From Candidatus Heimdallarchaeota archaeon (lineage in GTDB: Archaea > Asgardarchaeota > Heimdallarchaeia > Hodarchaeales > Hodarchaeaceae): 64,000 nt of DNA. Positions 1,316 through 42,463 of the stretch are shown one piece after another. Both the position numbers and the translations under genes were made by a program. The notes beneath the pieces were generated by a model. The model worked only from the letters and a program-made list of their open reading frames with translations. It did not search any database and was not told the origin of the DNA. Each line of letters opens with the position of its first letter. Position 1 is the stretch's first letter. Where the stretch lies: assembly GCA_020353515.1 (NCBI GenBank), contig CP070695.1, positions 409,173 through 473,172 of the forward strand. Reading direction: 5' to 3'.

Positions 1316-3085
1316 ATGTTAAACCTTGAAAGGAAGCACATTTTACCTGAGACAAATTTACCTGATATAAACGAATTGTTAGGGAAAGGAGAACAACTAA
1401 GTCAGAGCATAAGTCCTGGCATATGTCCATTTTTGATCACATATGATGTTAAATCCGAGAGTGAGTATAAACGTCTGCGATTATCCGAAGGGACGATCAT
1501 GCTTCATGGTCAGATTGGATATCGTAGTTTTACGAAAAGTAAATTAGCCTATTTCAAGATTTATGATCAAATTGAGGCTGCAGGTTATCGAATAGATCGA
1601 TATGGAATTTGCTTAGATTGGAGTATGGGATATCCCGCTGGTCTAAGGGCAAACATGCCGCGTGGAACTGGGTTAATTCTTAAAAAGAAACAAGATTTCA
1701 TTGACTTAACACACTCTGCACCAGTTGCTCCTCATTTTGGAGATTTCGTCATTGGAACACCTGCTGCTGTTGAGAACACGATTGCTGCGCTAGAGGCAGG
1801 TTCAACAAGCATCGGGAATATTGGCCAATATTTTACCTTCCGTTTACCAAAATGGGACGATGACGTCAAAACGACTGCTGAAACAGTCAAAGCTATGGCT
1901 CTTTGTGCTAATCAATCAACTGACATCATGATTCATTCAAATCTAGACGATGGGTTTGCAGCATTATTCTGTGACATGTCTTGCAGCATTGGGGCTGTAT
2001 TAATAGAGCAATATATTATTGAGGAACTTATTGGGGGTCATGTTTCGCATTGTTATGGTCATACGTTTTCAGATCCATTGACACGTTTAGCATTCCAAAA
2101 AGCACTATATCAGGTGACAACAACTCCAGGAAGTATGGTTTACGGTAATACAACAATATTTGTTGCCAATGAAGTAGAAAATTACGCCAATCTTGCAAGC
2201 TATTTACTTGTTGATATAATTGCTCAACGCAGCTCTCCAACAGGGCATGGATTAAATCCTGTTCCAGTTACAGAAGCCATGAGGATTCCTGAGATCAATG
2301 AGATTATTGATGTCCATCTCTTTGCAAATCGATTAATCCAAAGAGCTGATGGATTTCAAACTTTGATCAACATGGTAGAGGTAGAAAGAACCACAAATGT
2401 ATTAATTGATGCTGGTAAGCGCTTTAAAACTCGAGTTTTGGAGGGACTGGATACAGCTGGAATTGATATTAAGAATCCTTTTGAATTACTCCTTGCGATT
2501 CGTCGAATAGGAGCTAAGAAACTTGAGGAACTGTTTGGGCCTGGGGAATTTCAAGAGGGCCAAATACGCAATAGGAAACCCATTGTTCAAGCAACACCAA
2601 TCGTAGAACTTAAGAAAAAAAGTGAAAAAATAATTTCAGTTTTAAAACAATCCCATGAGGAAAAGTTCCATCAAACCAAGTTTAAAATCTGCGTTGCTTG
2701 TACTGATGTTCACGAATATGGAAAAATTCTTGTTGAAGATGTTTTAAAACGTCTGAATTACGAAGTAATAGATGCTGGAGTTAGTGTTGATCCAGATGTA
2801 GTTGCCAAGCAAGCGAAAGAAGCGAAAGTTGATTTTATTGCTATTAGTACCTATAATGGCATCGCTTTAAGCTACTTACAATCCTTAAATCAAGAAATAT
2901 CACAACTTGGCTTAAATATTCCGATTTTTATTGGAGGAAAACTTAACCAGATTCCTGTGGACAGCCCAACAAGCCTTCCTGTTGATGTGACTGATGAATT
3001 AAGAACGATGGGGGCAATCGTCTGTCTTCAGGTTGAAGATATGTTAGAAAAGATTCTTAAGACAACCAAGGAGAGAAACCAATGA
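1316..3085 (+). CDS. Cobalamin (B12)-binding domain protein with uncharacterised N-terminal domain
   Basis: C-terminal Rossmann-type B12-binding domain with DxHxxG motif (TDVHEYGK), ISTYNG and IFIGG. The ~430-aa N-terminal domain is not assignable. Confidence 0.75.
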   Translation: MLNLERKHILPETNLPDINELLGKGEQLSQSISPGICPFLITYDVKSESEYKRLRLSEGTIMLHGQIGYRSFTKSKLAYFKIYDQIEAAGYRIDRYGICLDWSMGYPAGLRANMPRGTGLILKKKQDFIDLTHSAPVAPHFGDFVIGTPAAVENTIAALEAGSTSIGNIGQYFTFRLPKWDDDVKTTAETVKAMALCANQSTDIMIHSNLDDGFAALFCDMSCSIGAVLIEQYIIEELIGGHVSHCYGHTFSDPLTRLAFQKALYQVTTTPGSMVYGNTTIFVANEVENYANLASYLLVDIIAQRSSPTGHGLNPVPVTEAMRIPEINEIIDVHLFANRLIQRADGFQTLINMVEVERTTNVLIDAGKRFKTRVLEGLDTAGIDIKNPFELLLAIRRIGAKKLEELFGPGEFQEGQIRNRKPIVQATPIVELKKKSEKIISVLKQSHEEKFHQTKFKICVACTDVHEYGKILVEDVLKRLNYEVIDAGVSVDPDVVAKQAKEAKVDFIAISTYNGIALSYLQSLNQEISQLGLNIPIFIGGKLNQIPVDSPTSLPVDVTDELRTMGAIVCLQVEDMLEKILKTTKERNQ

Positions 3086-3855
3086 TTGAGAGTGTTGGAA
3101 TCATTGGCGTAGGGCATCTAGCTAGTTATATTGTTGGAGGGTTGAGGAGAGCGTCACATGAGATTAAAATCATTCTGTCCCCACGCAATATCAACAAGAG
3201 TAAGGACTTAGCTACACGATTTGGAACAATAATTGCACAAAATAACCAAGATGTAGTAAATAGTGCAAATATAATTATCATTACCACTCGTCCAGAAGAT
3301 ACTATTACAGTTTCTGAAAACCTAAGATTTCAAACTGGACAGATAGTCATCTCGATGGCAATAGGTATAACGCTCGAGAATCTAAAATCTTCAATAGCAC
3401 CTGCCACAGTAGTACGAGCAAACACCATATCTTGTGCTGCAATAAATCAAAGTCCAACCCTCTTATTCCCAGATAATCCTCAAGCTCGTACTATACTCGC
3501 TTTGCTAGGCCAAGTCCATGTTTTACCAGATGAAGCATGTTTCACTTCTGCTAGTGCCATCGGGGCTTTTTATGGATGGATTTATGCATTATTAGATGAA
3601 ACAATTTCATGGACAACTCATACCGGAGTACCACAGCAAACTGCTCGAAACGTTGTTCTTGAAACTGTACGGGGAGCAGTGAATATGGCGTTAAATGAAC
3701 CAAACTCAGATCTAAAAGCTATATTAGCCACTCTGGCCACTCCAGGGGGTATTACCAAACAAGGACTTAATGTTCTACATCAAAAACAGAGTTTAGAGGT
3801 TTGGACAAACGCGCTTAATGTTGTCCATAAGCGACTGAGTAATGTAAAGAAATAG
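3082..3855 (+). CDS. Pyrroline-5-carboxylate reductase-like NAD(P)-dependent reductase (divergent ProC family)
   Basis: GIIGVGHLA dinucleotide-binding loop; C-terminal ATPGGIT dimerisation motif; ATGA overlap with the upstream gene. Confidence 0.8.
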   Translation: MIESVGIIGVGHLASYIVGGLRRASHEIKIILSPRNINKSKDLATRFGTIIAQNNQDVVNSANIIIITTRPEDTITVSENLRFQTGQIVISMAIGITLENLKSSIAPATVVRANTISCAAINQSPTLLFPDNPQARTILALLGQVHVLPDEACFTSASAIGAFYGWIYALLDETISWTTHTGVPQQTARNVVLETVRGAVNMALNEPNSDLKAILATLATPGGITKQGLNVLHQKQSLEVWTNALNVVHKRLSNVKK

Positions 3856-3891: not shown

Positions 3892-5256
3892 CTAGGTTAA
3901 GATCCCTTCACGCTCAAACACCTTCGAAGCAATGAACAAGCAGACGAGAATCACTATGATTAAGAAGCTAAAGTGGAAAACTAAATCCATAGCGATTCCA
4001 CCATAAGGTAAATCACGAGTTAATGCATTAGAAGCATAGGTTTGGGGATATAAGCCTTTTGATAAAATTGCGATTGAATGAGCCCAAGGAATTATGTATA
4101 GAATAATTCCAGCCCCACCAAATGCTCGTTCAGGGATACCTCCAAACATTCCTATAAAACCAACACCCATGGCAGGCACCATCATAAACATATTATACAT
4201 TGACTCTGCAGAGCGGACATCTTTTGTTAAAGATGCCACTGAAATACCTATCCCAATAGCAACAAATGCTGAGAGAAACATCATAGCTACAGTTAGGACT
4301 AACATAGTTATTGATGGTTCAATAGCAAAGATCGTCGCATATTCTTCAGAACCAACAGACGCAGCTGCGATATCTATCATACCTGCAAATAGAAAAAGAC
4401 CAACTACATTCATTAGGGCAAAAACACCAATAAGAACCATACCAGCGAGAAGTTTTGAGAAAAGAATGTTGAATCTTGAGATGGGTAATGCTAGAAGTGA
4501 TTCCATAGTTTTCTTTTCCCTTTCACCAGCGAAGGAAGTACTCACGAAAGGAGCTGGCGCTAGAACAGCAACCATAATTGAGATCATACCGATAAAACCA
4601 ACGCCAAAACCCGAGGCAGCACCCTCTTCTCTTGGAAAAACAACTGGTCGTGAAGAGAATAAGACCAATTTGTCTTGATCAGTGGGAACATGATAAGTAA
4701 AGGGAGGTTGGTAGATTATTGACGCAATTCCTGCCTCAAGCATTGTAGATCCTAGTATTCCACTCGGGAGAGAGTATAATTCTATTACTGGGGGAATATT
4801 TGAGGCAGAAGAGGTTGCATTATAACTTAGATACGCTTCTGTAAAATTTGCATGTAAGATAATACACGGAGTATAATAACTAGCAGTTCTGGAATTATTT
4901 ATTTTCTCTACTAGGACAGAATAGGACAAATCTGCGTATTTTGTGGAATTAATTGTTGCCCCATACAATATAGAATTATTTGTTTGAGTAGCATTTTCAA
5001 GCATCTCTAGAAATATCTCACTAAGCTTAAAGCTGTGAGTTTCATTTATTTCAATACCTTCATCATAACTAACAAAATAAATGGTTACACCTTCTTGAGA
5101 AGAGCCCATGACGAAACCCATAAGCATCTGAACCCCTCCTTGCAATCCCCACATGAAAAGGGGCATTAAAACAAATGTAAAAATCACATATCGGGTTCTT
5201 CTCGCGCTTTGTAACTCTTGTTTAACCAAGGCCATAATTTGTTTAACTGTACTCAT
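3892..5256 (-). CDS. ABC-2 type exporter permease (NatB-like)
   Basis: N-terminal TM, large extracytoplasmic loop, then several TMs; SFAGEREKKTMESLLALPISR..ILFSK signature. Confidence 0.85.
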   Translation of the reverse strand: MSTVKQIMALVKQELQSARRTRYVIFTFVLMPLFMWGLQGGVQMLMGFVMGSSQEGVTIYFVSYDEGIEINETHSFKLSEIFLEMLENATQTNNSILYGATINSTKYADLSYSVLVEKINNSRTASYYTPCIILHANFTEAYLSYNATSSASNIPPVIELYSLPSGILGSTMLEAGIASIIYQPPFTYHVPTDQDKLVLFSSRPVVFPREEGAASGFGVGFIGMISIMVAVLAPAPFVSTSFAGEREKKTMESLLALPISRFNILFSKLLAGMVLIGVFALMNVVGLFLFAGMIDIAAASVGSEEYATIFAIEPSITMLVLTVAMMFLSAFVAIGIGISVASLTKDVRSAESMYNMFMMVPAMGVGFIGMFGGIPERAFGGAGIILYIIPWAHSIAILSKGLYPQTYASNALTRDLPYGGIAMDLVFHFSFLIIVILVCLFIASKVFEREGILT

Positions 5257-5260
5257 TTCA

Positions 5261-6076
5261 TCACCTTCGCCTTAACAATCGAGATATTACTCCACGCTTT
5301 GGTTTAGTGGGTAAATCCCCTTCTAAAACACCTTCTCCCGTCGTCAAGCCAATAAAAACGTCCTCAAGATGAGCTTGGGTGAATTGTTCCTCAAGTTCAT
5401 CAGGAGTACCAATCGCAGCAAGTTTTCCTTTTACTAGAATCCCAACTCGATCACAAAGCTCTTCAACTTCGGTTAAATCATGTGTAGTCAGTATTACTGT
5501 TTTGTGTAGTTCTTTAGCTAATCTTTTAATTAAATTTCGTACTGTTCGAGCACCTAGAATATCAATACCAGTTGTAGGTTCATCAAGAAAGATTAAATCT
5601 GGATCCATAACCAAAGCACGAGCTACGAGGACTTTTCGTTTCATCCCACCAGAAAATTCTTTTGTAACATCGTTCTCACGCCCTCGAAGACCAATCATGT
5701 CAATTAGGTCCTCAGTTCTCTGATGAACTTCTCCATTTGGCATATTACCATAGATTTGTCCATAGTACATAATATTCTCTTTTGCAGTTAAATTTTCGTA
5801 CACTTCTGCCTCTTGAGGTAAGAGGCTTGCCTTTTGTCTGATCTTCATCATGTCTTTCTTAATATCAAAAGGACCCAAACCATCGTATTGAATACGAGCG
5901 GTTCCAGAAGTAGGTTTAATTAATCCAATCAATAACCGAATGAGGGTGGTTTTTCCCGCTCCATTAGGACCGAGGAGACCAAATACCTCACCTTTCCTGA
6001 TAGTAAGAGAGACATTATCTAAAGCTACGTTGTTTTTGAATCTTTTTGTAAGGTTTTCTATTTCTATGATGTTCAA
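5261..6076 (-). CDS. ABC transporter ATP-binding protein
   Basis: Walker A GPNGAGKTT, signature FSGGMKRK, Walker B IFLDEPT, H-loop TTH. Confidence 0.95.
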   Translation of the reverse strand: MNIIEIENLTKRFKNNVALDNVSLTIRKGEVFGLLGPNGAGKTTLIRLLIGLIKPTSGTARIQYDGLGPFDIKKDMMKIRQKASLLPQEAEVYENLTAKENIMYYGQIYGNMPNGEVHQRTEDLIDMIGLRGRENDVTKEFSGGMKRKVLVARALVMDPDLIFLDEPTTGIDILGARTVRNLIKRLAKELHKTVILTTHDLTEVEELCDRVGILVKGKLAAIGTPDELEEQFTQAHLEDVFIGLTTGEGVLEGDLPTKPKRGVISRLLRRR

Positions 6077-6249
6077 ATATTATTTCACTCCGCTTGTTTT
6101 ATAATAATTTGTGAATTTCTTATTTTTTCTACAATTTTGCTTGATTCGTCATCATACAGACATATTTGTTTCTTCTAACTTCTTATTTTCCTATTTTACC
6201 ACGATTTTTTAAACAGATTTAATGCGGAACTAAGGAATAATGAAGAGGA

Positions 6250-6927
6250 TTACTTCGAAAGAATCCTCTTAATCTCTTGTAATTCAGCTAGCATTTCCAT
6301 GTGGAAACCTGATCCCTTGGATGGAGGGGGGGGAGGAGGTTCAAGTTCAGTCGCAGTTGCATATTGTCCCCGAAACTGACGAAGCATATCTAAAATGAGA
6401 TCCCTGACTTCAATGAAGTTTCTAATTCCCTCAATTTTCCCTTCGGGACCCATTTGTTGACCTGACTTGCCAGCAGTTTCAATTTCACAAGTTCCAATCC
6501 TAAAAAAACTATCGTAAATCCCATATCTAGAGCTCACATTGGTGATAGTCCGGAATGGAATGTGTTTTACCTCTTTATTGATCACACCTTTCTTAAGGAT
6601 GACCTCATTGTCCAGAATAACAAATTCCATTGTTCGTACATAATAATCTATCAAAGCGAAAAGAATTGGTATCAAGCACAACCAAATGAGAAAGTACACA
6701 AACACAAGACCTATCCAGTTAGCAGAGATCCAATGTCCAAATTCATCCCCAGAGGGATCACTATCAAAACCACTCACAAATGCAATGAAAGAACCAAGGC
6801 CAAATATGGCTGCTGTAATTACAAAAAATGCGGTTATTACATATAGAAAGAATTTATTTCGGAGAGCGGTTAGCGGATAGAAGGGTTTTCCTTTCTCAAT
6901 TTCTTCTAAATACATTTTTTCAATCAC
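6250..6927 (-). CDS. bPH_2 (bacterial PH domain) membrane protein, YdbS-like
   Basis: Two TMs, then KKGVI..KHIPFRTITNVSSRYGIYD..IGTCEIETAG; C-terminal MLAELQEIKRIL helix. Confidence 0.85.
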   Translation of the reverse strand: MIEKMYLEEIEKGKPFYPLTALRNKFFLYVITAFFVITAAIFGLGSFIAFVSGFDSDPSGDEFGHWISANWIGLVFVYFLIWLCLIPILFALIDYYVRTMEFVILDNEVILKKGVINKEVKHIPFRTITNVSSRYGIYDSFFRIGTCEIETAGKSGQQMGPEGKIEGIRNFIEVRDLILDMLRQFRGQYATATELEPPPPPPSKGSGFHMEMLAELQEIKRILSK

Positions 6928-7601
6928 CGATTTTTTGCTAGGATTTCTTTTATCTTTCTCAATTCATCAAGTACTTCCTTTTGAAGAACAATATCACCAA
7001 TTGCTTCCTCATAATGAGTGGGTTGTTCAACCTCGGTCGTGGTCGCATATTGTCCTCGGAATTTCCTCAATTCACTTAAAACAACGTCTCGAACTTCTCT
7101 AAAATTTCTAATCCCTTCAATTTTTTCTTCAGGTCCAGTTTGTTGTCCTGATTTACCAGCTGTCTCTATTTCACAGGTTCCAATACCAAATATTCGATCA
7201 TAAATGCCATAGCGGGATGATACATTCGTAATGGTTCGGAAGGGGACATGCTTTATGGTTTTATTGATAATTCCCTTCCTCACAATAACTTCTGTTTCTT
7301 CAATGATATATTCTATGTTTCGCACATAAAAGATAACTAGGATAGCCGCGAGAAGCATCAAGATCACGCTAATGATTAAATACCAAGAAATTAATTCCTG
7401 ACTATAATCTGTTAGCCATTTCCCAAAACCATCACCAGAGGGGTCTTCATCCAGACTTACAAAAAAAATAATTATTCCTCCAAAAGTAATAATAATTCCT
7501 GTTACAACGATGAAGGTCGTTATTATATACAGGAAAAGCTTATTCCTGAATGCAGATACAGGGTAGAATGGTTTTTCTTTTTGAATCGTTTTTATTTGCA
7601 T
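6924..7601 (-). CDS. bPH_2 membrane protein (tandem paralog)
   Basis: Same architecture; KHVPFRTITNVSSRYGIYDRIFGIGTCEIETAG is nearly identical to the neighbour. Confidence 0.85.
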   Translation of the reverse strand: MQIKTIQKEKPFYPVSAFRNKLFLYIITTFIVVTGIIITFGGIIIFFVSLDEDPSGDGFGKWLTDYSQELISWYLIISVILMLLAAILVIFYVRNIEYIIEETEVIVRKGIINKTIKHVPFRTITNVSSRYGIYDRIFGIGTCEIETAGKSGQQTGPEEKIEGIRNFREVRDVVLSELRKFRGQYATTTEVEQPTHYEEAIGDIVLQKEVLDELRKIKEILAKNR

Positions 7602-7612
7602 CTTTTAATCAC

Positions 7613-8293
7613 CTAAATCTTCTTATTTTTCAACAATCGTTTAATATCTCTCAATTCATTGACCATCTCCCTCTGTACAGTAGAAAGATCGGTTTCATCG
7701 TGAGTAGGAACTTCACTTCCCGAAACGGCCCTATAATAGATTCGAAGTTGTCTTAGGATATAATCACGGATTTCATGATACAGAGGTAAGCCCTCCAACT
7801 TTTCCTCAGGACCAGTCGCCCCACCTTTGCCCGCAGTTTGAATATTGACGCAACCAATACCGAGAAGACGATCCAAAGGTCCTGCAGTTGTTGAAATATT
7901 CGTAACGGTTCGATAAGGACAATATTTGATAGTTCTGTTAACCAGTCCTTTTTTCACAATCACCTCATTACCATGCACAATAAACTCCATTCTATTCACG
8001 TACAACGGTAGCAGAATTAGTGAAGGAAGTATAGTTGCAAAACTTATAGCCCAATAAATTACTGTAAACACAATCTCGAAATTTGCTGGTTTAGGTTCGT
8101 CTGCAACAAATTGAATAAACCACCCGAGTAGTATAAATCCTATACTCACAAATACCCAAATAAGAAATACCGTAAGATAGTATTTCCATAAAAGAGCTCG
8201 TGTTGGGTAGATTCGTCGCACTTCAGGGGTTGGATATGTTCCTTCTCCTTTGATAATTTTAACTTGAGACATTTCTTTCATTATACTAATCAC
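7613..8293 (-). CDS. bPH_2 membrane protein (third paralog)
   Basis: Two TMs; KKGLVNRTIKYCPYRTVTNISTTAGPLDRLLGIGCVNIQTAG; C-terminal MVNELRDIKRLL. Confidence 0.85.
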   Translation of the reverse strand: MISIMKEMSQVKIIKGEGTYPTPEVRRIYPTRALLWKYYLTVFLIWVFVSIGFILLGWFIQFVADEPKPANFEIVFTVIYWAISFATILPSLILLPLYVNRMEFIVHGNEVIVKKGLVNRTIKYCPYRTVTNISTTAGPLDRLLGIGCVNIQTAGKGGATGPEEKLEGLPLYHEIRDYILRQLRIYYRAVSGSEVPTHDETDLSTVQREMVNELRDIKRLLKNKKI

Positions 8294-8771
8294 CTTCTCC
8301 TTTCACCCATCCTTTCTCCTGAATTTCTGAGAAGACGTAACGAAATTGTTCTAGGATAGGTAAAGATGCCTGATCGTTTGATAACATGATATTCCGTTCT
8401 CTTTTGATCAGATTGAGAGTCTCCTGACAGTCTGGCTGACATTTATCAGAGCAATGATGTTCATACCAGGCTAAAATACCTTCTTCAGTCGTAAAGATGA
8501 TATAAACCTTTGTATCATTCGTCCAGTCGTAAGAGACCAGTAACCCGGCATTTTTAGGTATTTTTGCCAAATCAGAATCTAATCGTAGACTCTTGGCGAT
8601 GTTTTTCAACTGTGTCTCAATTTTCTTCCGAACCACAACCCTAGTTTTGTAAATACTATTTGGATTCTCCCTTTTCAGCTTTCTCGCGATGTCTTCCGCA
8701 GACATTCCTTCATTAGTAAGTCTAAGTACTTCAAACTCGTAATCCGAGAGAAAATTTGGTTTATGAGACAT
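8286..8771 (-). CDS. HTH transcriptional regulator with C-terminal His/Cys cluster
   Basis: LuxR/sigma-r4-like N-terminus (LSDYEFEVLRLTNEGMSAEDIARKL); C-terminal WYEHHCSDKCQPDC; first gene of the bPH_2 operon. Confidence 0.7.
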   Translation of the reverse strand: MSHKPNFLSDYEFEVLRLTNEGMSAEDIARKLKRENPNSIYKTRVVVRKKIETQLKNIAKSLRLDSDLAKIPKNAGLLVSYDWTNDTKVYIIFTTEEGILAWYEHHCSDKCQPDCQETLNLIKRERNIMLSNDQASLPILEQFRYVFSEIQEKGWVKGEGD

Positions 8772-8776
8772 TAGTT

Positions 8777-8813
8777 CTTACCGTTTAAAGGTAAGGTTTA
8801 CCTTACATATAAG
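8777..8813 (-). promoter_or_regulatory. TATA box plus palindromic operator of the regulator/bPH_2 operon
   Basis: Inverted repeat GTAAGG-TTTA-CCTTAC (8791-8806) and overlapping CTTACC-N7-GGTAAG (8777-8795), directly downstream of minus-strand CTTATATG (8806-8813). Confidence 0.6.
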
Positions 8814-8880
8814 ACTTTCTATTGGGGAAGGTAAGGTGAAATATTTTATCCATCAAAGAAATAAGAGTAGATGATCTATC

Positions 8881-9906
8881 ATGGGAAAACAAAATGAAAT
8901 TATTGATCCTTCTAATTTATTCAATGAAGATGGATCACTAGTTCAACGTGGTTGGTCGAAAAAACCCATTTTAAACTACAATAAGGAGAATATTGGAAAG
9001 AGATGGACTCGTATCAAAGAGTGGGATCATTTCTCAGTTCTAAACAAACAGTTTGGTTTCCAGCTTACGATTGGAGACATTGGGTATCTAACTCAAATGA
9101 GTTTTGTTTGGCTTGATTTTGAAAATAAAACGCGATACGACAAAGGAACTTTTAAATTTCTCACTAAATCGAAAATTTTACCACTAAGTTCACTAATAGA
9201 TAGCCACATTGAGTTCCCGACTAAAAAGTTTCACGCGACAATCTCAAAGCAAAAAGAAAAACGAGTATTAGCAATTGATGACCCTTCATTTCTGAAAAAA
9301 GGATTGAAAGGAACCATAAATCTTACTGATGATCCGAGTATGGATAATACTGTTGTAGTAATTGGATATGAAGACGATCCAAGACTCTTTTATTATAATC
9401 ACAAGATAAATTATATGCCCGCTGAAGGAACTATCAAGATTGGGGATAAAACCTATGTATTTGACCCAGACTCGTCATTTGCGTTGATGGACTGGGGACG
9501 AGGAATCTGGCCCTATAGAACTCATTGGCTATGGGGATCAGCGTGTGGAATCGTTGATAACATTCCAGTGGCTTTCAATATAGGTTATGGGTTTGGAGAT
9601 TTATCTACCCATACCGAGAATATCGTTTTTTTTGATGGTAAAGCCCATAAAATAGATGAAGTAACCTTTCATCACGAAAATCGTGACCCCACCAAATCTT
9701 GGACTTTTACTAGCAATGATGACCGATTCAACATGATTCTGAATCCACTTCTTCCACATCGAGAAAAATTAAACTTAGGATTGATTTCATTGAATTCATC
9801 TCTTCTTCATGGTTTATATTCAGGTAATATAGTCTTGGATACAGGAGAAAAAATTCAGATTGAGGAGATGCTAGGTCATGCAGAGGATATCTATTGGCGA
9901 TGGTAA
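8881..9906 (+). CDS. DUF2804 family protein
   Basis: GWSKKP..RIKEWD, FYYNHKINYMPAEG, DWGRGIWPY..WLWGS, TENIVFFDG..HK, GHAE..W motifs. Confidence 0.8.
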   Translation: MGKQNEIIDPSNLFNEDGSLVQRGWSKKPILNYNKENIGKRWTRIKEWDHFSVLNKQFGFQLTIGDIGYLTQMSFVWLDFENKTRYDKGTFKFLTKSKILPLSSLIDSHIEFPTKKFHATISKQKEKRVLAIDDPSFLKKGLKGTINLTDDPSMDNTVVVIGYEDDPRLFYYNHKINYMPAEGTIKIGDKTYVFDPDSSFALMDWGRGIWPYRTHWLWGSACGIVDNIPVAFNIGYGFGDLSTHTENIVFFDGKAHKIDEVTFHHENRDPTKSWTFTSNDDRFNMILNPLLPHREKLNLGLISLNSSLLHGLYSGNIVLDTGEKIQIEEMLGHAEDIYWRW

Positions 9907-37504: not shown

Positions 37505-39121
37505 CTACTCCATGTTACTGAGTTTTCTTGCTCCAACCGATAAGATAACCATTCCTATGATTAACTGTAAAGCACTATAGATTACTGCCACAGGATAGAG
37601 AGCATCAGCGATAGCAAATAGATCCCAAAGAATCTGATCCAGGGAGATTAACAAGACAAATAATGGAATGATAACTCCAAACACACAGATCTGGATATTG
37701 ATCATAAATTCACCACTCTTATCATGAAATGCGGGATTTACTAGAAACAGACCGATAGTGAAGATTATAGCTGCTGAAGCAATGATAAGAGTCAAGGTAA
37801 CATTAAGAAGGAGTGTTTCCAAGGTTATGTCAGGAACAAGTAAGTTCACTGTGGTTTCAACAACTAGAACAATTGGGAGAATAGTTACAAGATATTGAAA
37901 TAGCTTCATTCTTAGGTATCTGCTTGTACTTGTCGGAGTCTGTTTATAGAGTAGCAAGTTTTCTTTTCCCTGAAGACTGATGTCGGAGGTTACAAACGCT
38001 GCCAAGAGAGGCCCTATGAATAAAGACATAATAAAAGCACTCTCAGGTTCATCAGGTTGAGCCAGAAAGACATTCATTACTAAAATTAAGCCGACACCAT
38101 AAATTATCCAGGCAACATTCTTTGCTTTACGGAAGTAAGTCTTGAATCCTGTAGCCAAAAGAAGACCTGATGATCCACCACCACCAAGCTTTCTGATGGA
38201 ATTATAGAACAAACTATTAGGATTAGAGGTAGCTGCAGAAAAGGAGGTTGGTTCAAGGTTGTATACACGATTCGCTAAAAACCCACCAATTAAGAGAGAG
38301 CCGCCCAAGAAAGCTAGTAAGGCACTGAACTGCAGGATCGTTGAGAACTCAGTAAGTAAGATATCTCCAGGGTTTTGTGCGAACGCAACAATGATTTCTG
38401 AACCCCATCCCCAGGGAAAGAACGCAAAAAGATCCTTTACAAGTTTAGCATTTTGAGGGTCTTTAAGGACCTCATAATACCCACCTATCAATAGATATAT
38501 GACAGCGATTAACGGTAGGATCACTATTATTGCTAATCCTTTTCCAATGTCTCTTCCTCGAGCTGATTTCATGAGAACTGATCGTAGGAGAACAGCTATC
38601 ATTGTTCCTACCCAAGTGGCGGATAAAAAGATAATTATGAAAACAGTTACGATAATAAAAATTTGAAAGATGTCTAAACCAAGTGGGAAGAGCGCTGCAG
38701 TAAAGGTTCCCCCAATGATAGCTGCAAATACTGCATAAAAGGGGATTTTCCCTAGGAATTCACCAATCAAAATGTCGCTCGGTTGAACTGGGGATGAAAG
38801 ATAGATCTCTAAGTGTTCGGTTTTAATGTCGGCGATAGTCGAGGATATTGGAAAAGAAGCAAACATGACAAATAATACGAAAAAGAGGACATTAATGATA
38901 GCTACTGCTACTGCGCTTAGTAATAATTCATGTAATTCATCAACAAATGCGTCGATAATGGAGGGGGCAATGAATAGTGTATAGATTGTTAATCCCCCAA
39001 TTAAAAGATAAGGGAGGTAGGATCGAATCTCACGAATTCGACTGGTTGTCACACGATATTCTGTCTTTGCTATTGATAACCAGGTAGGGTTTCGAAGAGA
39101 AATCAACTGTGGTTCCTCCAA
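37505..39121 (-). CDS. ABC exporter permease (12-TM duplicated ABC-2 type)
   Basis: EHLEIYLSSPVQPSDILIGEFLGK and ENLLLYKQTP signatures; overlaps the ATPase gene. Confidence 0.8.
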   Translation of the reverse strand: MEEPQLISLRNPTWLSIAKTEYRVTTSRIREIRSYLPYLLIGGLTIYTLFIAPSIIDAFVDELHELLLSAVAVAIINVLFFVLFVMFASFPISSTIADIKTEHLEIYLSSPVQPSDILIGEFLGKIPFYAVFAAIIGGTFTAALFPLGLDIFQIFIIVTVFIIIFLSATWVGTMIAVLLRSVLMKSARGRDIGKGLAIIVILPLIAVIYLLIGGYYEVLKDPQNAKLVKDLFAFFPWGWGSEIIVAFAQNPGDILLTEFSTILQFSALLAFLGGSLLIGGFLANRVYNLEPTSFSAATSNPNSLFYNSIRKLGGGGSSGLLLATGFKTYFRKAKNVAWIIYGVGLILVMNVFLAQPDEPESAFIMSLFIGPLLAAFVTSDISLQGKENLLLYKQTPTSTSRYLRMKLFQYLVTILPIVLVVETTVNLLVPDITLETLLLNVTLTLIIASAAIIFTIGLFLVNPAFHDKSGEFMINIQICVFGVIIPLFVLLISLDQILWDLFAIADALYPVAVIYSALQLIIGMVILSVGARKLSNME

Positions 39122-39912
39122 GCTAGGAGCTCTTTTTCATCAACCCCACCAGTTAAGGTGATAAAGGCTTCTTCTAATGTTTTAGTCCCTGCTTGAGTAA
39201 TGATCTCATCAATTGTGCCCACTGCAACAAGCCTACCTTGGTTAATTATACCGATTCGATCACAAAGCTCCTCTACTAGGGGAAGAATATGGCTACATAC
39301 AACAATAGTCCTTCCTAGTTGATCTGCTAAGCCTTTTATCAAATCTTTAACCATATGAGCTGCTCGGGGATCCAGAGCTGCTGTAGGTTCATCGAAGTAG
39401 ATGATTGTAGGATCATGGATTAACGCCGCGGCAATTAATACCTTTTGCTTCATTCCTGAACTGAACCCTTCAAGGAGATGATCCTTTCTATCAGTCAGAC
39501 CGAATAGCTTTAGAAGTTCCTCAATACGTTCTTTCAAGATTGTCCCTTTGATGTTGTAGAGGGCTCCTATGAATTCGAGAAACTCGTATGCACTTAGCTT
39601 TTCATATAGTCCAGGTGACTCTGCTAATAGACCCGTGATGGTTTTAACCTGTGTGGAGTCTTTAGAAATGTCATGGCCATTCACATCAGCAGTACCACTG
39701 GTTGGTTTCAGAATACAGTTCAAGAGGCGAACAGTAGTGGTTTTTCCCGCACCATTAGGACCCAGAAGGCCAAAAGTCTCACCCTCATAAATTTCAAGAT
39801 TAAGCTCATCAACAGCTTTGATATCTTTCCCATAATACTTTGAAAGGTTATCCGTACGGATAAGAACCTTTTTTCTTTGTTTTGTTTCTGTTATAATTTC
39901 TTGTATTTGCAT
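39103..39912 (-). CDS. ABC transporter ATP-binding protein
   Basis: GPNGAGKTT, FSSGMKQK, YFDEPT, CSH. Confidence 0.95.
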   Translation of the reverse strand: MQIQEIITETKQRKKVLIRTDNLSKYYGKDIKAVDELNLEIYEGETFGLLGPNGAGKTTTVRLLNCILKPTSGTADVNGHDISKDSTQVKTITGLLAESPGLYEKLSAYEFLEFIGALYNIKGTILKERIEELLKLFGLTDRKDHLLEGFSSGMKQKVLIAAALIHDPTIIYFDEPTAALDPRAAHMVKDLIKGLADQLGRTIVVCSHILPLVEELCDRIGIINQGRLVAVGTIDEIITQAGTKTLEEAFITLTGGVDEKELLAWRNHS

Positions 39913-39934: not shown

Positions 39935-40393
39935 TTAATTTATCCTCCATCCACAGGAAGCACAGAATCGATCATCAGATTCTAAGCTATTTCCGCAATT
40001 TGTACAGAAAAATGAGGACGACTTAGGTTTTGGTTCCCAATATTGGTCATCATTTCTGGAATAGAATGGCTTTGGTCTAGGCTTTGCATGATAGGAAGTT
40101 CTGTCTCTCTCATATCTATTAGAAGAGTCATCAAGTGTTTCACTTTCATCCAAAGTTTCAGTGAAACCAGCTGCGACTAATACAATTACTCCAATCATGA
40201 TGATAAACATGAATATTAACGGGAAAATTGTCATTGAAATGTCACCATGCATTCCGAGGATTATTAATAGAGGTACAAACAGTCCTATTACGAGGCTGAA
40301 GATAGTAATCAAGAACACAAATTTACTGGGTTTTTTGCGCCTTCTTCCATCTTGAGCACAAGCTGCAGCGGCGACTCCACCTATCCAAGCCAT
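39935..40393 (-). CDS. Two-TM membrane protein with C-terminal zinc ribbon
   Basis: Two TMs; FCTNCGNSLESDDRFCASCG. Confidence 0.8.
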   Translation of the reverse strand: MAWIGGVAAAACAQDGRRRKKPSKFVFLITIFSLVIGLFVPLLIILGMHGDISMTIFPLIFMFIIMIGVIVLVAAGFTETLDESETLDDSSNRYERDRTSYHAKPRPKPFYSRNDDQYWEPKPKSSSFFCTNCGNSLESDDRFCASCGWRIN

Positions 40394-40593
40394 TATGCTA
40401 GTCCTCCTTGATTCGAAATCTTCTTAAATTGTACTACAGAGGTGGCTAAGAACACCAATCCTAGTATAAAAAACACTGGATTAGTGGCTCCTAAACAGAG
40501 CCAAATAATTCCTAAAGCACGAAGAGCTTGAATCTGATCAAGGTTTTCTTCCTTTTTCATTTGATTTTTTTCGTTTATTTCTTGATTAAGCAA
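40393..40593 (-). CDS. Small two-TM membrane protein
   Basis: TTG start with GGAG RBS; TAATG stop/start overlap with the zinc-ribbon gene. Confidence 0.65.
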   Translation of the reverse strand: MLNQEINEKNQMKKEENLDQIQALRALGIIWLCLGATNPVFFILGLVFLATSVVQFKKISNQGGLA

Positions 40594-40639: not shown

Positions 40640-40685
40640 ATTACCGAATTTGTTCATTACTAAAAATGGTAATTACCTTTATAAA
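40640..40685 (-). promoter_or_regulatory. TATA box plus GTAAT-repeat operator of the ABC operon
   Basis: Minus strand TTTATAAA, then GGTAATTACC palindrome and TTTTAGTAATGAA-N7-GGTAAT; three GTAAT at 16-bp period. Confidence 0.65.
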
Positions 40686-40825
40686 TGCATTGTTTTAGGA
40701 AAAACACATCAGTAAACTACCAAAAAAAAATTATACTATCTGAAATAAAAGTCAATTAAAAGGTCAATATCTTTATATGAGAATGTAAATGCTTTATTTG
40801 TGAAGAACACTTAGCCCTGTCGAAA

Positions 40826-40878
40826 CGAAAAGTTTAAAAGAATAGTCACTAATTTTAGTAATGAATAATTAAGGTAAT
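40826..40878 (+). promoter_or_regulatory. BRE/TATA plus matching operator of the regulator-bPH_2 operon
   Basis: CGAAAAG-TTTAAAAG, then 12 nt later TTTTAGTAATGAA-N7-GGTAAT (22/26 identical to the inverted copy at 40640-40665). Confidence 0.65.
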
Positions 40879-41461
40879 GGAAAGTCGAAAAGTGACTCCT
40901 TTGTTATCAGATTCAGAGAATGTGGTCATAAGAGAACTTTTCAAGACCCCCAAAGTTGAGATTGAAGTCATCAAAGATGTTTTAATTAAAGAGAGGAGAG
41001 AGTGGGAGCGTATAGTGGAGGATGGACGCTTACAAAAGGAAGTTGATGTACGCTCAATATCTAAATTTAAATCTCTAGCCTTAAAAAAGATCAAAAAAGC
41101 ACTTACGGAGTTCTCAGATAACTTCAGGTTAGATAGGTCAGTTCAGGGCCGCACGAAACAAGAACGCGAAGAAGATGAAAAAAAGATAAATATCCTCCTA
41201 AAAAATGGCGTTCTAATTGGGTATGACTTTCGAGATGATAGACCAGTCTATCTATTTTATAACATAAATAAACGTGCTATAATCCCATGGCAGGATCATT
41301 CTTGTCATGAAAATTGCCAGGAACAATGTTTTTCCATTCTTACAACATTTAGAAACGAGCATGGTCTTGATGACCCAAATCAAAATATTCCCATTCGAAA
41401 GCAATTTGAAGCTAGTATAGAGGAAATCATCAAGAAAAATAAGGATCGAAAAGAAGAATGA
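40877..41461 (+). CDS. Putative regulator with His/Cys cluster, paralog of 8286..8771
   Basis: LSDSENVVIREL start; FRLD, GVLIGYD, VYLFY, WQDHSCHENCQEQC align with LRLD, GLLVSYD, VYIIF, WYEHHCSDKCQPDC. Confidence 0.7.
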   Translation: MESRKVTPLLSDSENVVIRELFKTPKVEIEVIKDVLIKERREWERIVEDGRLQKEVDVRSISKFKSLALKKIKKALTEFSDNFRLDRSVQGRTKQEREEDEKKINILLKNGVLIGYDFRDDRPVYLFYNINKRAIIPWQDHSCHENCQEQCFSILTTFRNEHGLDDPNQNIPIRKQFEASIEEIIKKNKDRKEE

Positions 41462-42207
41462 ATGAAGTCAAAATTATCAAGGGGTCTGACATCCCTCCTC
41501 CCCCTGGAAAACCGAGAATTATTCGTCCCAGTAGGAATCTCCTCTGGAAAAATTATTTGTTGTATATTTTAGTATTCATCATTTTCACCGCCGTATTGTT
41601 GATCATCTTTGCGCTTTTTGGATTCTGGTTGGGATCTGAACTTCCAGAACCACAAACGAGGGTATTATATGAGGCTTTTTTCTGGATGGGGGTCATTTAC
41701 ATGGCAATTTGGTTTGGAATCACTATTGCTTATCTTGTAGGGATGCGTCTATACGTAAAATCTATGTTATTCATCGTTCACGGTCATGAAATCGTGGTTC
41801 ACAAAGGAATAATTAATAAATCCGAGAAACATGTTCCCTATAGAACAGTAACGAATATCAACATGAAAACTGGTCCTTTCGACCGATTATTTGGTATAGG
41901 TACAATTGAAATCCAAACTGCTGGGGGTAAAGGTTATTCTCTTGATGAGACTGCAGAAGAGAAATTAGAAGGGATTAAAGTTTACCGTGAAGTAAGAGAC
42001 TATATATTGACTCAATTAAGACAATTCCAAGCAGCTTATGGAACAGTTGTTACGAAAGAAGAGGAAGCACCTATACAACCTATTCCTGACCAAATGCTCC
42101 TAGAATTGAAAGAAATTAAAAATGTTTTAACTACTCGATTAGAAAGAATGGAAGCAAAATTGGAAGAAATGAATAAACAATTAGAAAAGAATCAAAAACC
42201 CTATTAA
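41458..42207 (+). CDS. bPH_2 membrane protein
   Basis: Two TMs; HKGIINKSEKHVPYRTVTNINMKTGPFDRLFGIGTIEIQTAG; closest to 7613..8293; ATGA overlap with the regulator. Confidence 0.85.
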   Translation: MNEVKIIKGSDIPPPPGKPRIIRPSRNLLWKNYLLYILVFIIFTAVLLIIFALFGFWLGSELPEPQTRVLYEAFFWMGVIYMAIWFGITIAYLVGMRLYVKSMLFIVHGHEIVVHKGIINKSEKHVPYRTVTNINMKTGPFDRLFGIGTIEIQTAGGKGYSLDETAEEKLEGIKVYREVRDYILTQLRQFQAAYGTVVTKEEEAPIQPIPDQMLLELKEIKNVLTTRLERMEAKLEEMNKQLEKNQKPY

Positions 42208-42238
42208 GCAGCCATTTTATTACTATTTGGTGGAATTA

Positions 42239-42340
42239 ATGGACATCTGGCTACAAATAATGCTGATAGTGTTTGGATTATTCATCATTGGATTATTTGT
42301 AGTATTTTTTATGAGATTTATTAAATGGATAACAAAATAG
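42239..42340 (+). CDS. 33-aa single-TM micropeptide, FxKx(V/I)T family (not in ORF track)
   Basis: MDIWLQIMLIVFGLFIIGLFVVFFMRFIKWITK; GGTGG RBS upstream. Confidence 0.7.
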   Translation: MDIWLQIMLIVFGLFIIGLFVVFFMRFIKWITK

Positions 42341-42361: not shown

Positions 42362-42463
42362 ATGTTAGAACCATTTCCAATCATTCTAATCGTAGCTCTT
42401 TTAGGATTATTGTTATTGTTTATTGCCCTTTTCATTAGATTTCTTAAGAAAGTTACGAGCTAG
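42362..42463 (+). CDS. 33-aa single-TM micropeptide, FxKx(V/I)T family (not in ORF track)
   Basis: MLEPFPIILIVALLGLLLLFIALFIRFLKKVTS; GGTAG upstream; tandem with the previous peptide. Confidence 0.7.
   Translation: MLEPFPIILIVALLGLLLLFIALFIRFLKKVTS

Follow-up and report, generated by a model that had tools for sequence, protein, structure and literature searches.

We report that a 64,000-nucleotide (nt) stretch of the genome of a Candidatus Heimdallarchaeota archaeon (assembly GCA_020353515.1, contig CP070695.1, positions 409,173 to 473,172; referred to below as the window) carries two loci in which a gene for a predicted helix-turn-helix (HTH) regulator is followed by one or more genes for bPH_2 membrane proteins and lies near genes for an ATP-binding cassette (ABC) exporter. 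The genome itself is a single contig of 4.94 Mb, and its nearest relatives are labelled Promethearchaeota. Comparison with other genomes confirmed this association of regulator, bPH_2 and ABC genes as genuine and showed it to be strongly conserved.

Locus 1 (8771-3892, minus strand) consists of six open reading frames (ORFs), all located and oriented as in the initial annotation. The regulator gene (8286-8771; 161 amino acids, aa) comes first and encodes WYEHHCSDKCQPDC, i.e. the expected pattern W-x2-H-x-C-x3-C-x3-C. Its stop overlaps by 8 nt with the start of the first bPH_2 gene (bPH_2a, 7613-8293), which is followed by the two accessory paralogues bPH_2b (6924-7601) and bPH_2c (6250-6927), the latter two overlapping by 4 nt; each of the three encodes a protein of approximately 225 aa. 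After a spacer of 173 nt come the genes for an ABC ATPase (5261-6076) and for an ABC-2 permease of 454 aa with a long loop after its first transmembrane (TM) segment (3892-5256). The permease matched PF12679 (ABC2_membrane_2) with 75.5 bits (cut-off 27.2).

Locus 2 has the same core. The second regulator gene (40877-41461, plus strand) encodes a 194-aa protein that is 27% identical to the first (E 6e-14), and its WQDHSCHENCQEQC shows the same spacing of one His and three Cys residues (His-Cys3). The bPH_2 partner gene (41458-42207, plus strand) overlaps it by 4 nt. Across a spacer of 283 nt, on the other strand, there are genes for two small membrane proteins, an ABC ATPase (39103-39912) and a 538-aa permease (37505-39121), the last two of which form the ABC part of the locus (37505-39912, minus strand), of the divergent type that is common beside the regulator in most other Asgard loci. 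The recurrence of the regulator-bPH_2 pair at 40877-42207 beside another ABC exporter, as noted initially, is thus confirmed for all three components. The ATPases of the two loci reached 115 bits (locus 1) and 100 bits with PF00005 (cut-off 25), while TIGR01188 (DrrA), the best NCBIfam match of both, gave 248.7 (locus 1) and 259.3 bits, below its cut-off of 312.45; judged by these profiles both are ABC ATPases, nearest to the DrrA subfamily and not certified members of it. The locus-2 permease reached only PF01061 (27.1 bits, cut-off 26.9).

The small membrane proteins encoded between the locus-2 regulator and ATPase genes (39935-40593, minus strand) are 66 aa and 152 aa long, the latter with a C-terminal zinc ribbon, and both are absent from the corresponding place in the Thor-type loci, where the ATPase gene abuts the regulator gene. 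A third regulator paralogue is encoded elsewhere in the genome (G000:C1:4038649-4039101, corresponding to 8647-9126 on the minus strand of L008). It carries WYEH-x3-C-x2-C-x6-C, belongs to a sister subfamily (B; the two regulators of the window belong to subfamily A) and is flanked by two genes that are paralogous to each other and encode secreted proteins (323 and 275 aa) with a C-terminal anchor and no Pfam match. PCYCGC (PF13798) was considered for this paralogue and rejected (24.2 bits, cut-off 25). A weak match to the YcgN cysteine-cluster family (E 0.0016) was also under its cut-off.

The regulator is best described as a new family with a Tfx/EnfR-type DNA-binding part and no Pfam family. 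The AlphaFold2 model (predicted local distance difference test, pLDDT, 92) has two short helices and then a helix of 25 residues, after which come a three-stranded sheet and three more helices. For residues 5-57 the best structural match was EnfR (8hno_A; Z 9.1, root mean square deviation 1.1 Å over 52 aa, 25% identity) and the next were DesR, sigma-4 and LuxR domains; moreover, GerE, VpsT and RcsB matched the HTH fold with probabilities of 0.95-0.97 over 43-55 residues. At the sequence level, a profile search gave EnfR (E 1e-4) and GerE (E 1.3e-4), while the matches to the curated families lie within the first 40 residues and are below the cut-offs (GerE PF00196, 18.9 bits versus 23.5; Tfx TIGR00721, 16.3 bits versus 60.25, E 0.007, residues 5-39 only). 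The prediction of a DNA-binding HTH fold was hence upheld, and we infer from it that the protein binds DNA.

EnfR is a Tfx-family dimeric repressor that acts on a pseudo-palindrome (PMC10570040). EnfR (TON_1525, PDB 8HNO) and Tfx (MTH0916) are similar in size to the regulator, and EnfR likewise has two short helices, a long "stem" helix and an alpha/beta head with a three-stranded sheet (PMC10570040); the HTH flag and long stem of its "eighth-note" fold are present in residues 5-57 of the regulator. The regulator differs from EnfR in having an invariant His-Cys3 site, unreported for EnfR in PMC10570040, and a C-terminal domain without PDB match. Specifically, a Foldseek search of the PDB gave no whole-protein match at E ≤ 0.001 (best ZitR, E 0.17), the HTH part alone matching LuxR-type domains. 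The C-terminal domain modelled alone (pLDDT 88) likewise gave no PDB fold match (best Z 3.8, best Foldseek E 0.5) and 8hno was not among its structure matches; its order of secondary-structure elements is nonetheless like that of EnfR. In the ESM Atlas this domain matched archaeal hypothetical proteins of the same family only.

An exhaustive search yielded only 37 representatives among 1.84 billion proteins, and a profile search retrieved 478 clusters with Thor-, Hod-, Prometh- and Bathyarchaeota labels, in which Pfam domains are absent throughout and the annotation is "hypothetical" except for one cluster mislabelled as nicotinamide riboside kinase. A canonical Tfx was not found in the genome that carries the window. 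His105, Cys107, Cys111 and Cys115 are invariant in alignments of 39 and of 45 sequences; their spacing varies by lineage, being H-x-C-x3-C-x3-C in the genus of the window genome and H-x7-C-x2-C-x5-C, sometimes with an insertion, in the Thor-type loci. These residues would hold a metal in the alpha/beta domain at the C-terminus and may constitute a structural Zn site; that they sense metal or redox state is conjecture. The arrangement recalls, at the level of motifs only, the zinc-binding anti-sigma (ZAS) and sigma/anti-sigma systems, which share with the module a sigma-4-like HTH and the order of a regulator gene followed by a membrane-protein gene. The ZAS spacing H-x3-C-x2-C is carried by subfamily B. 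The regulator differs from ZAS in that the protein that binds DNA also carries the Cys/His site, and does so in an alpha/beta and not in a helical ZAS domain. To our knowledge there are no sigma factors in Archaea.

The genome of the window encodes three regulator paralogues; its bPH_2 genes number exactly four, all within the two regulator-headed operons. Tabulation of gene neighbourhoods, set beforehand as the test of the association, showed bPH_2 genes to be enriched beside regulator homologues. Among sampled subfamily-A loci of other Asgard genomes a bPH_2 gene lies directly downstream in 54 of 55. Of the 30 best loci of the regulator, which come from several Asgard families, 29 have this gene directly downstream on the same strand, the exception being a contig end; the 20 wider loci, which represent many genera, all show this arrangement, with one to five bPH_2 genes, and 14 of these 20 have an ABC ATPase gene and a gene for a permease of approximately 570 aa divergently upstream. 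In a further batch all five subfamily-A loci had bPH_2 directly downstream, while none of 15 subfamily-B loci (H-x3-C-x2-C-x5-C, like the third paralogue) had a bPH_2 gene within 4 kb. The pairing is therefore not due to chance, as had been proposed. Across 400 Asgard genomes the regulator profile matched in 119, concentrated in the genus of the window genome (19 of 21) and in two other families, and bPH_2 was present in 278; since bPH_2 is the more widespread of the two, the regulator depends on bPH_2 and not the reverse. In addition, some genomes of the same genus (e.g. G076:C35, G075:C216 and G067:C89) have regulator matches that contain one or two stop codons in frame (TGA, TAA or TAG), which may reflect matches that run upstream of the true start.

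The genes might also be neighbours only by way of the shared ancestry of closely related genomes, with no functional link. The B12-binding and P5C (pyrroline-5-carboxylate) reductase-like genes next to locus 1 are also syntenic within the genus, as this explanation would have it. However, the pairing persists across Asgard families and on Bathyarchaeota-labelled contigs of two types, which carry the module in the same order, while the flanking genes other than the module differ; the pair is also duplicated within the window genome and is absent from the sister subfamily. We therefore regard shared ancestry as a very improbable explanation.

All four bPH_2 proteins of the window matched PF03703 (48.0, 54.5 and 44.6 bits for the three of locus 1 and 52.8 bits for that of locus 2; cut-off 22) and have two hydrophobic segments before the PH domain in Kyte-Doolittle plots. 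By analogy with the family (PMC2817789) we infer that the PH domains are cytoplasmic. A C-terminal helix is present in all copies with E, L, I, K and L as invariant residues; the motif L-x-E-L-x-(E/D)-I-K suggested for it is in its exact form not found in every copy, so that the helix stands and the motif is to be relaxed. SHOCT, which co-occurs with PF03703 (PMC3581485), was rejected as the identity of this helix, as no Pfam SHOCT match was obtained at E ≤ 0.1. A PH-domain tree places the copies next to the regulator in both loci, together with the orthologues in the first position, in one clade apart from the accessory copies, so that regulator and partner were duplicated together. The second and third copies form position-specific clades common to other genomes of the genus, and by this tree the accessory copies are old and specific to operon position. 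Such paralogues fit the proposal that bPH_2 proteins form hetero-oligomers at the membrane, and PHb domains are known to form rings (PMC2817789). A search for anti-phage defence systems with PADLOC gave no match for the regulators, the bPH_2 proteins and the locus-1 permease (the ATPase and permease of locus 2 were not in the scan), and the locus-1 ATPase had generic ATPase matches only, which did not place it in a defence system.

Upstream of the locus-1 regulator gene (8777-8840, minus strand) the coding strand reads, in order, TTATAT (8812-8807), AAGGTAA-ACC-TTACCTT (8804-8788), GGTAAG (8782-8777) and the ATG (8771), with CCTTACCTT farther upstream at 8828-8836. The TATA element and the GGTAA/TTACCTT half-sites are invariant, and the spacer variable, across four orthologous loci whose regulators share as little as 54% identity. 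A site between TATA and the transcription start is usual for archaeal repressors. The stretch 8777-8813, proposed initially for a DNA-binding assay, hence contains a conserved palindrome at a repressor-type position, and GGTAA-N3-TTACC just downstream of TATA fits an autorepressor. At locus 2 the divergent promoter region (40640-40878) is flanked by inverted copies of an element of approximately 24 nt, TTTTAGTAATGAA-AA-T--GGTAAT, one at each end, that ends in GGTAAT, and the Thor-type loci have GTAAA-N2-TTTAC palindromes around their TATA boxes. Over related loci, the 8.2 kb upstream of regulator genes contain 20 occurrences of GTAA-N3-4-TTAC and the other 298 kb contain four, figures that describe these loci and are not a test.

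The spacer before the locus-1 ABC genes is organised differently. It is conserved and has its own TATA-like element, and an alignment of five orthologous spacers revealed the conserved element TTCCGCATTAA-TCT-TTTAAAAA (6206-6229, minus strand) between bPH_2c and the ATPase gene; the GGTAA palindrome was not found in these five spacers. The element is probably a promoter in its own right, at which another factor would bind, and because this conserved 173-nt spacer with its TATA-like element precedes the ABC genes, the array probably comprises two transcription units. Of the view that the array is one co-oriented unit, strand and order are thus retained, while co-regulation of its ABC genes is not supported because their upstream element differs and lacks the palindrome. 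Beyond the permease, and directly beside it, the gene for a B12-binding protein of 589 aa overlaps that for the P5C reductase-like protein (1316-3855, plus strand); this pair keeps its place in all orthologous loci of the genus (L009, L011 and L014).

Taken together, our data point, with about an even chance of being right, to a self-contained unit for export or protection at the membrane that has a transcription factor of its own and is organised as an autoregulated operon. The 161-aa protein would probably act as a dimeric DNA-binding regulator in which HTH and long helix are built like those of a Tfx/EnfR repressor. In its own operon it would bind the GGTAA-N3-TTACC palindromes that lie between the TATA element and the start of transcription, and so repress itself and the co-transcribed bPH_2 genes. 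At the membrane the bPH_2 proteins would form homo- or hetero-oligomers that work with the ABC exporter encoded nearby, and they might expel, or protect against, membrane-active peptides or hydrophobic compounds by analogy with the YdbS/YdbT-like proteins of Firmicutes. That the unit responds to envelope stress is conjecture.

Several points weigh against this reading. The ABC genes are missing from six of the 20 wider loci and from one further locus (L069), for which reason the exporter is an accessory and not a core part; the two ABC permeases of the window are from different families; and the ABC genes of locus 1 have, as described, a conserved upstream element of their own. The exact palindrome GGTAANNNTTACC occurs once in the window, no more than shuffled sequence gives, so that the weight of the palindrome comes from its conservation among orthologues; a second GGTAANNNTTACC site was not found in the window, even with one mismatch, and no wider regulon is visible there. 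Moreover, for every member the proposed roles in DNA binding, expression and phenotype are derived from comparison, and the bacterial analogy refers to proteins that share the PH domain only.

As stated in the initial annotation, ydbST is indeed a member of the sigma-W regulon (PMC3498285). A closer bacterial precedent than sigma-W is the YdbS/YdbT-like pair DdE/DdF, which is required for export of the leaderless bacteriocin enterocin DD14 and adjoins the ABC genes ddHIJ (PMC8657885). YdbS/YdbT, DdE/DdF, LnqC/LnqD and Orf7/Orf8 of aureocin A53 all resemble the module in having bPH_2 (PF03703) after N-terminal TM segments and, as in the module, there are several PH domains per system (one plus three in YdbS/YdbT; one to five single-domain genes here). 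In leaderless-bacteriocin loci the PH proteins also lie beside an ABC exporter, and the bacterial proteins have a stress- or peptide-related role. In contrast, control in bacteria is by sigma-W or by the bacteriocin operon, whereas here a dedicated regulator is adjacent, and the three domains that YdbT has fused in one chain are here encoded by separate genes. A structural peptide gene was not identified in the module, and the similarity to the bacterial systems is confined to the PH domain.

An archaeal counterpart of the leaderless bacteriocins, that is an archaeocin-like cluster for peptide export and self-immunity in which bPH_2 and ABC proteins export a small peptide encoded nearby, would follow this precedent, as YdbS/YdbT-like proteins of Firmicutes export leaderless bacteriocins together with an ABC transporter (PMC8657885). 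Candidate peptides are present at locus 2, where two consecutive ORFs of approximately 33 aa (42227-42340 and 42362-42463, plus strand) directly follow the bPH_2 gene and encode hydrophobic single-TM peptides with basic tails, and in Thor-type loci (L047, L050, L065 and L067), where conserved ORFs for TM peptides of 32 aa and approximately 60 aa lie between the first and second bPH_2 genes. Moreover, a Peptidase_C39_2 gene follows the module permease on two Bathyarchaeota-labelled contigs (L067, 3142-4511; L068, 832-2201), and C39 peptidases are known from bacteriocin-processing exporters. However, the products of the small ORFs are strongly hydrophobic, single-pass or hairpin membrane peptides, unlike the known amphipathic and cationic leaderless bacteriocins, no small ORF was found on the coding strand of locus 1, and entire genera have the module in the majority of their genomes, a distribution uncommon among bacteriocin loci. 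We consider peptide export of this kind improbable.

The relation between the regulator and its adjacent bPH_2 protein might also be physical. In such a signalling pair the bPH_2 protein would be more than an effector: it would keep the sigma-4-like regulator at the membrane, or modulate it there, by a logic like that of anti-sigma factors or of BlaR/BlaI, and the regulator would be released by stress from peptides or on the membrane, or when the His-Cys3 site changes. The regulator and the first bPH_2 gene are the invariant core of the module, the ABC genes and the extra bPH_2 copies being variable; the two genes overlap by 8 and 4 nt in the window and are a few nt apart elsewhere; and the regulator-adjacent bPH_2 proteins form a distinct orthologous group that was duplicated with the regulator. 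Prediction of the bPH_2a-regulator complex gave "weak support", with a median score of 0.45 against 0.00 for the best of three controls, agreement between runs in at least 90% of contacts and a partner pLDDT of at least 75. Of 80 solved complexes 58 reached the mark that counts as a pass, as did two of 110 mismatched pairs; passes at 0.60 or under came from only seven of the 80 solved complexes and from both of those mismatches. By the calibration of the tool, a pass as weak as this is wrong more often than right, and the prediction gives no interface. Furthermore, a repressor that is co-transcribed with the genes it controls is common without mutual binding. We know of no bPH_2 protein that has been shown to bind a transcription factor. 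We judge the signalling pair to be unlikely, albeit less so than peptide export, and we would rate marginally lower its specific form in which a ring of bPH_2 proteins tethers the sigma-4-like regulator and perturbation of the membrane, or loss or change of the His-Cys3 metal, releases it. The autoregulated export or protection unit remains the reading that we prefer.

The module is real, conserved and uncharacterised in archaea, and with it an unnamed family of archaeal transcription factors is defined by a predicted operator, a conserved putative metal site and a membrane partner that is fixed. What prokaryotic PH domains do is largely open, and membrane sensing and defence in Asgard archaea are little understood; for both questions the module offers a small, testable system with a single regulator, a single palindrome and one to five PH-domain proteins. 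Signalling from the PH proteins to the regulator, if it takes place, would be a new type of archaeal membrane-to-DNA signalling, and if their rings tether it, the module, with its new family of transcription factors and its PH domains, would be the archaeal equivalent of the sigma/anti-sigma signalling of the envelope, in the lineage closest to eukaryotes.

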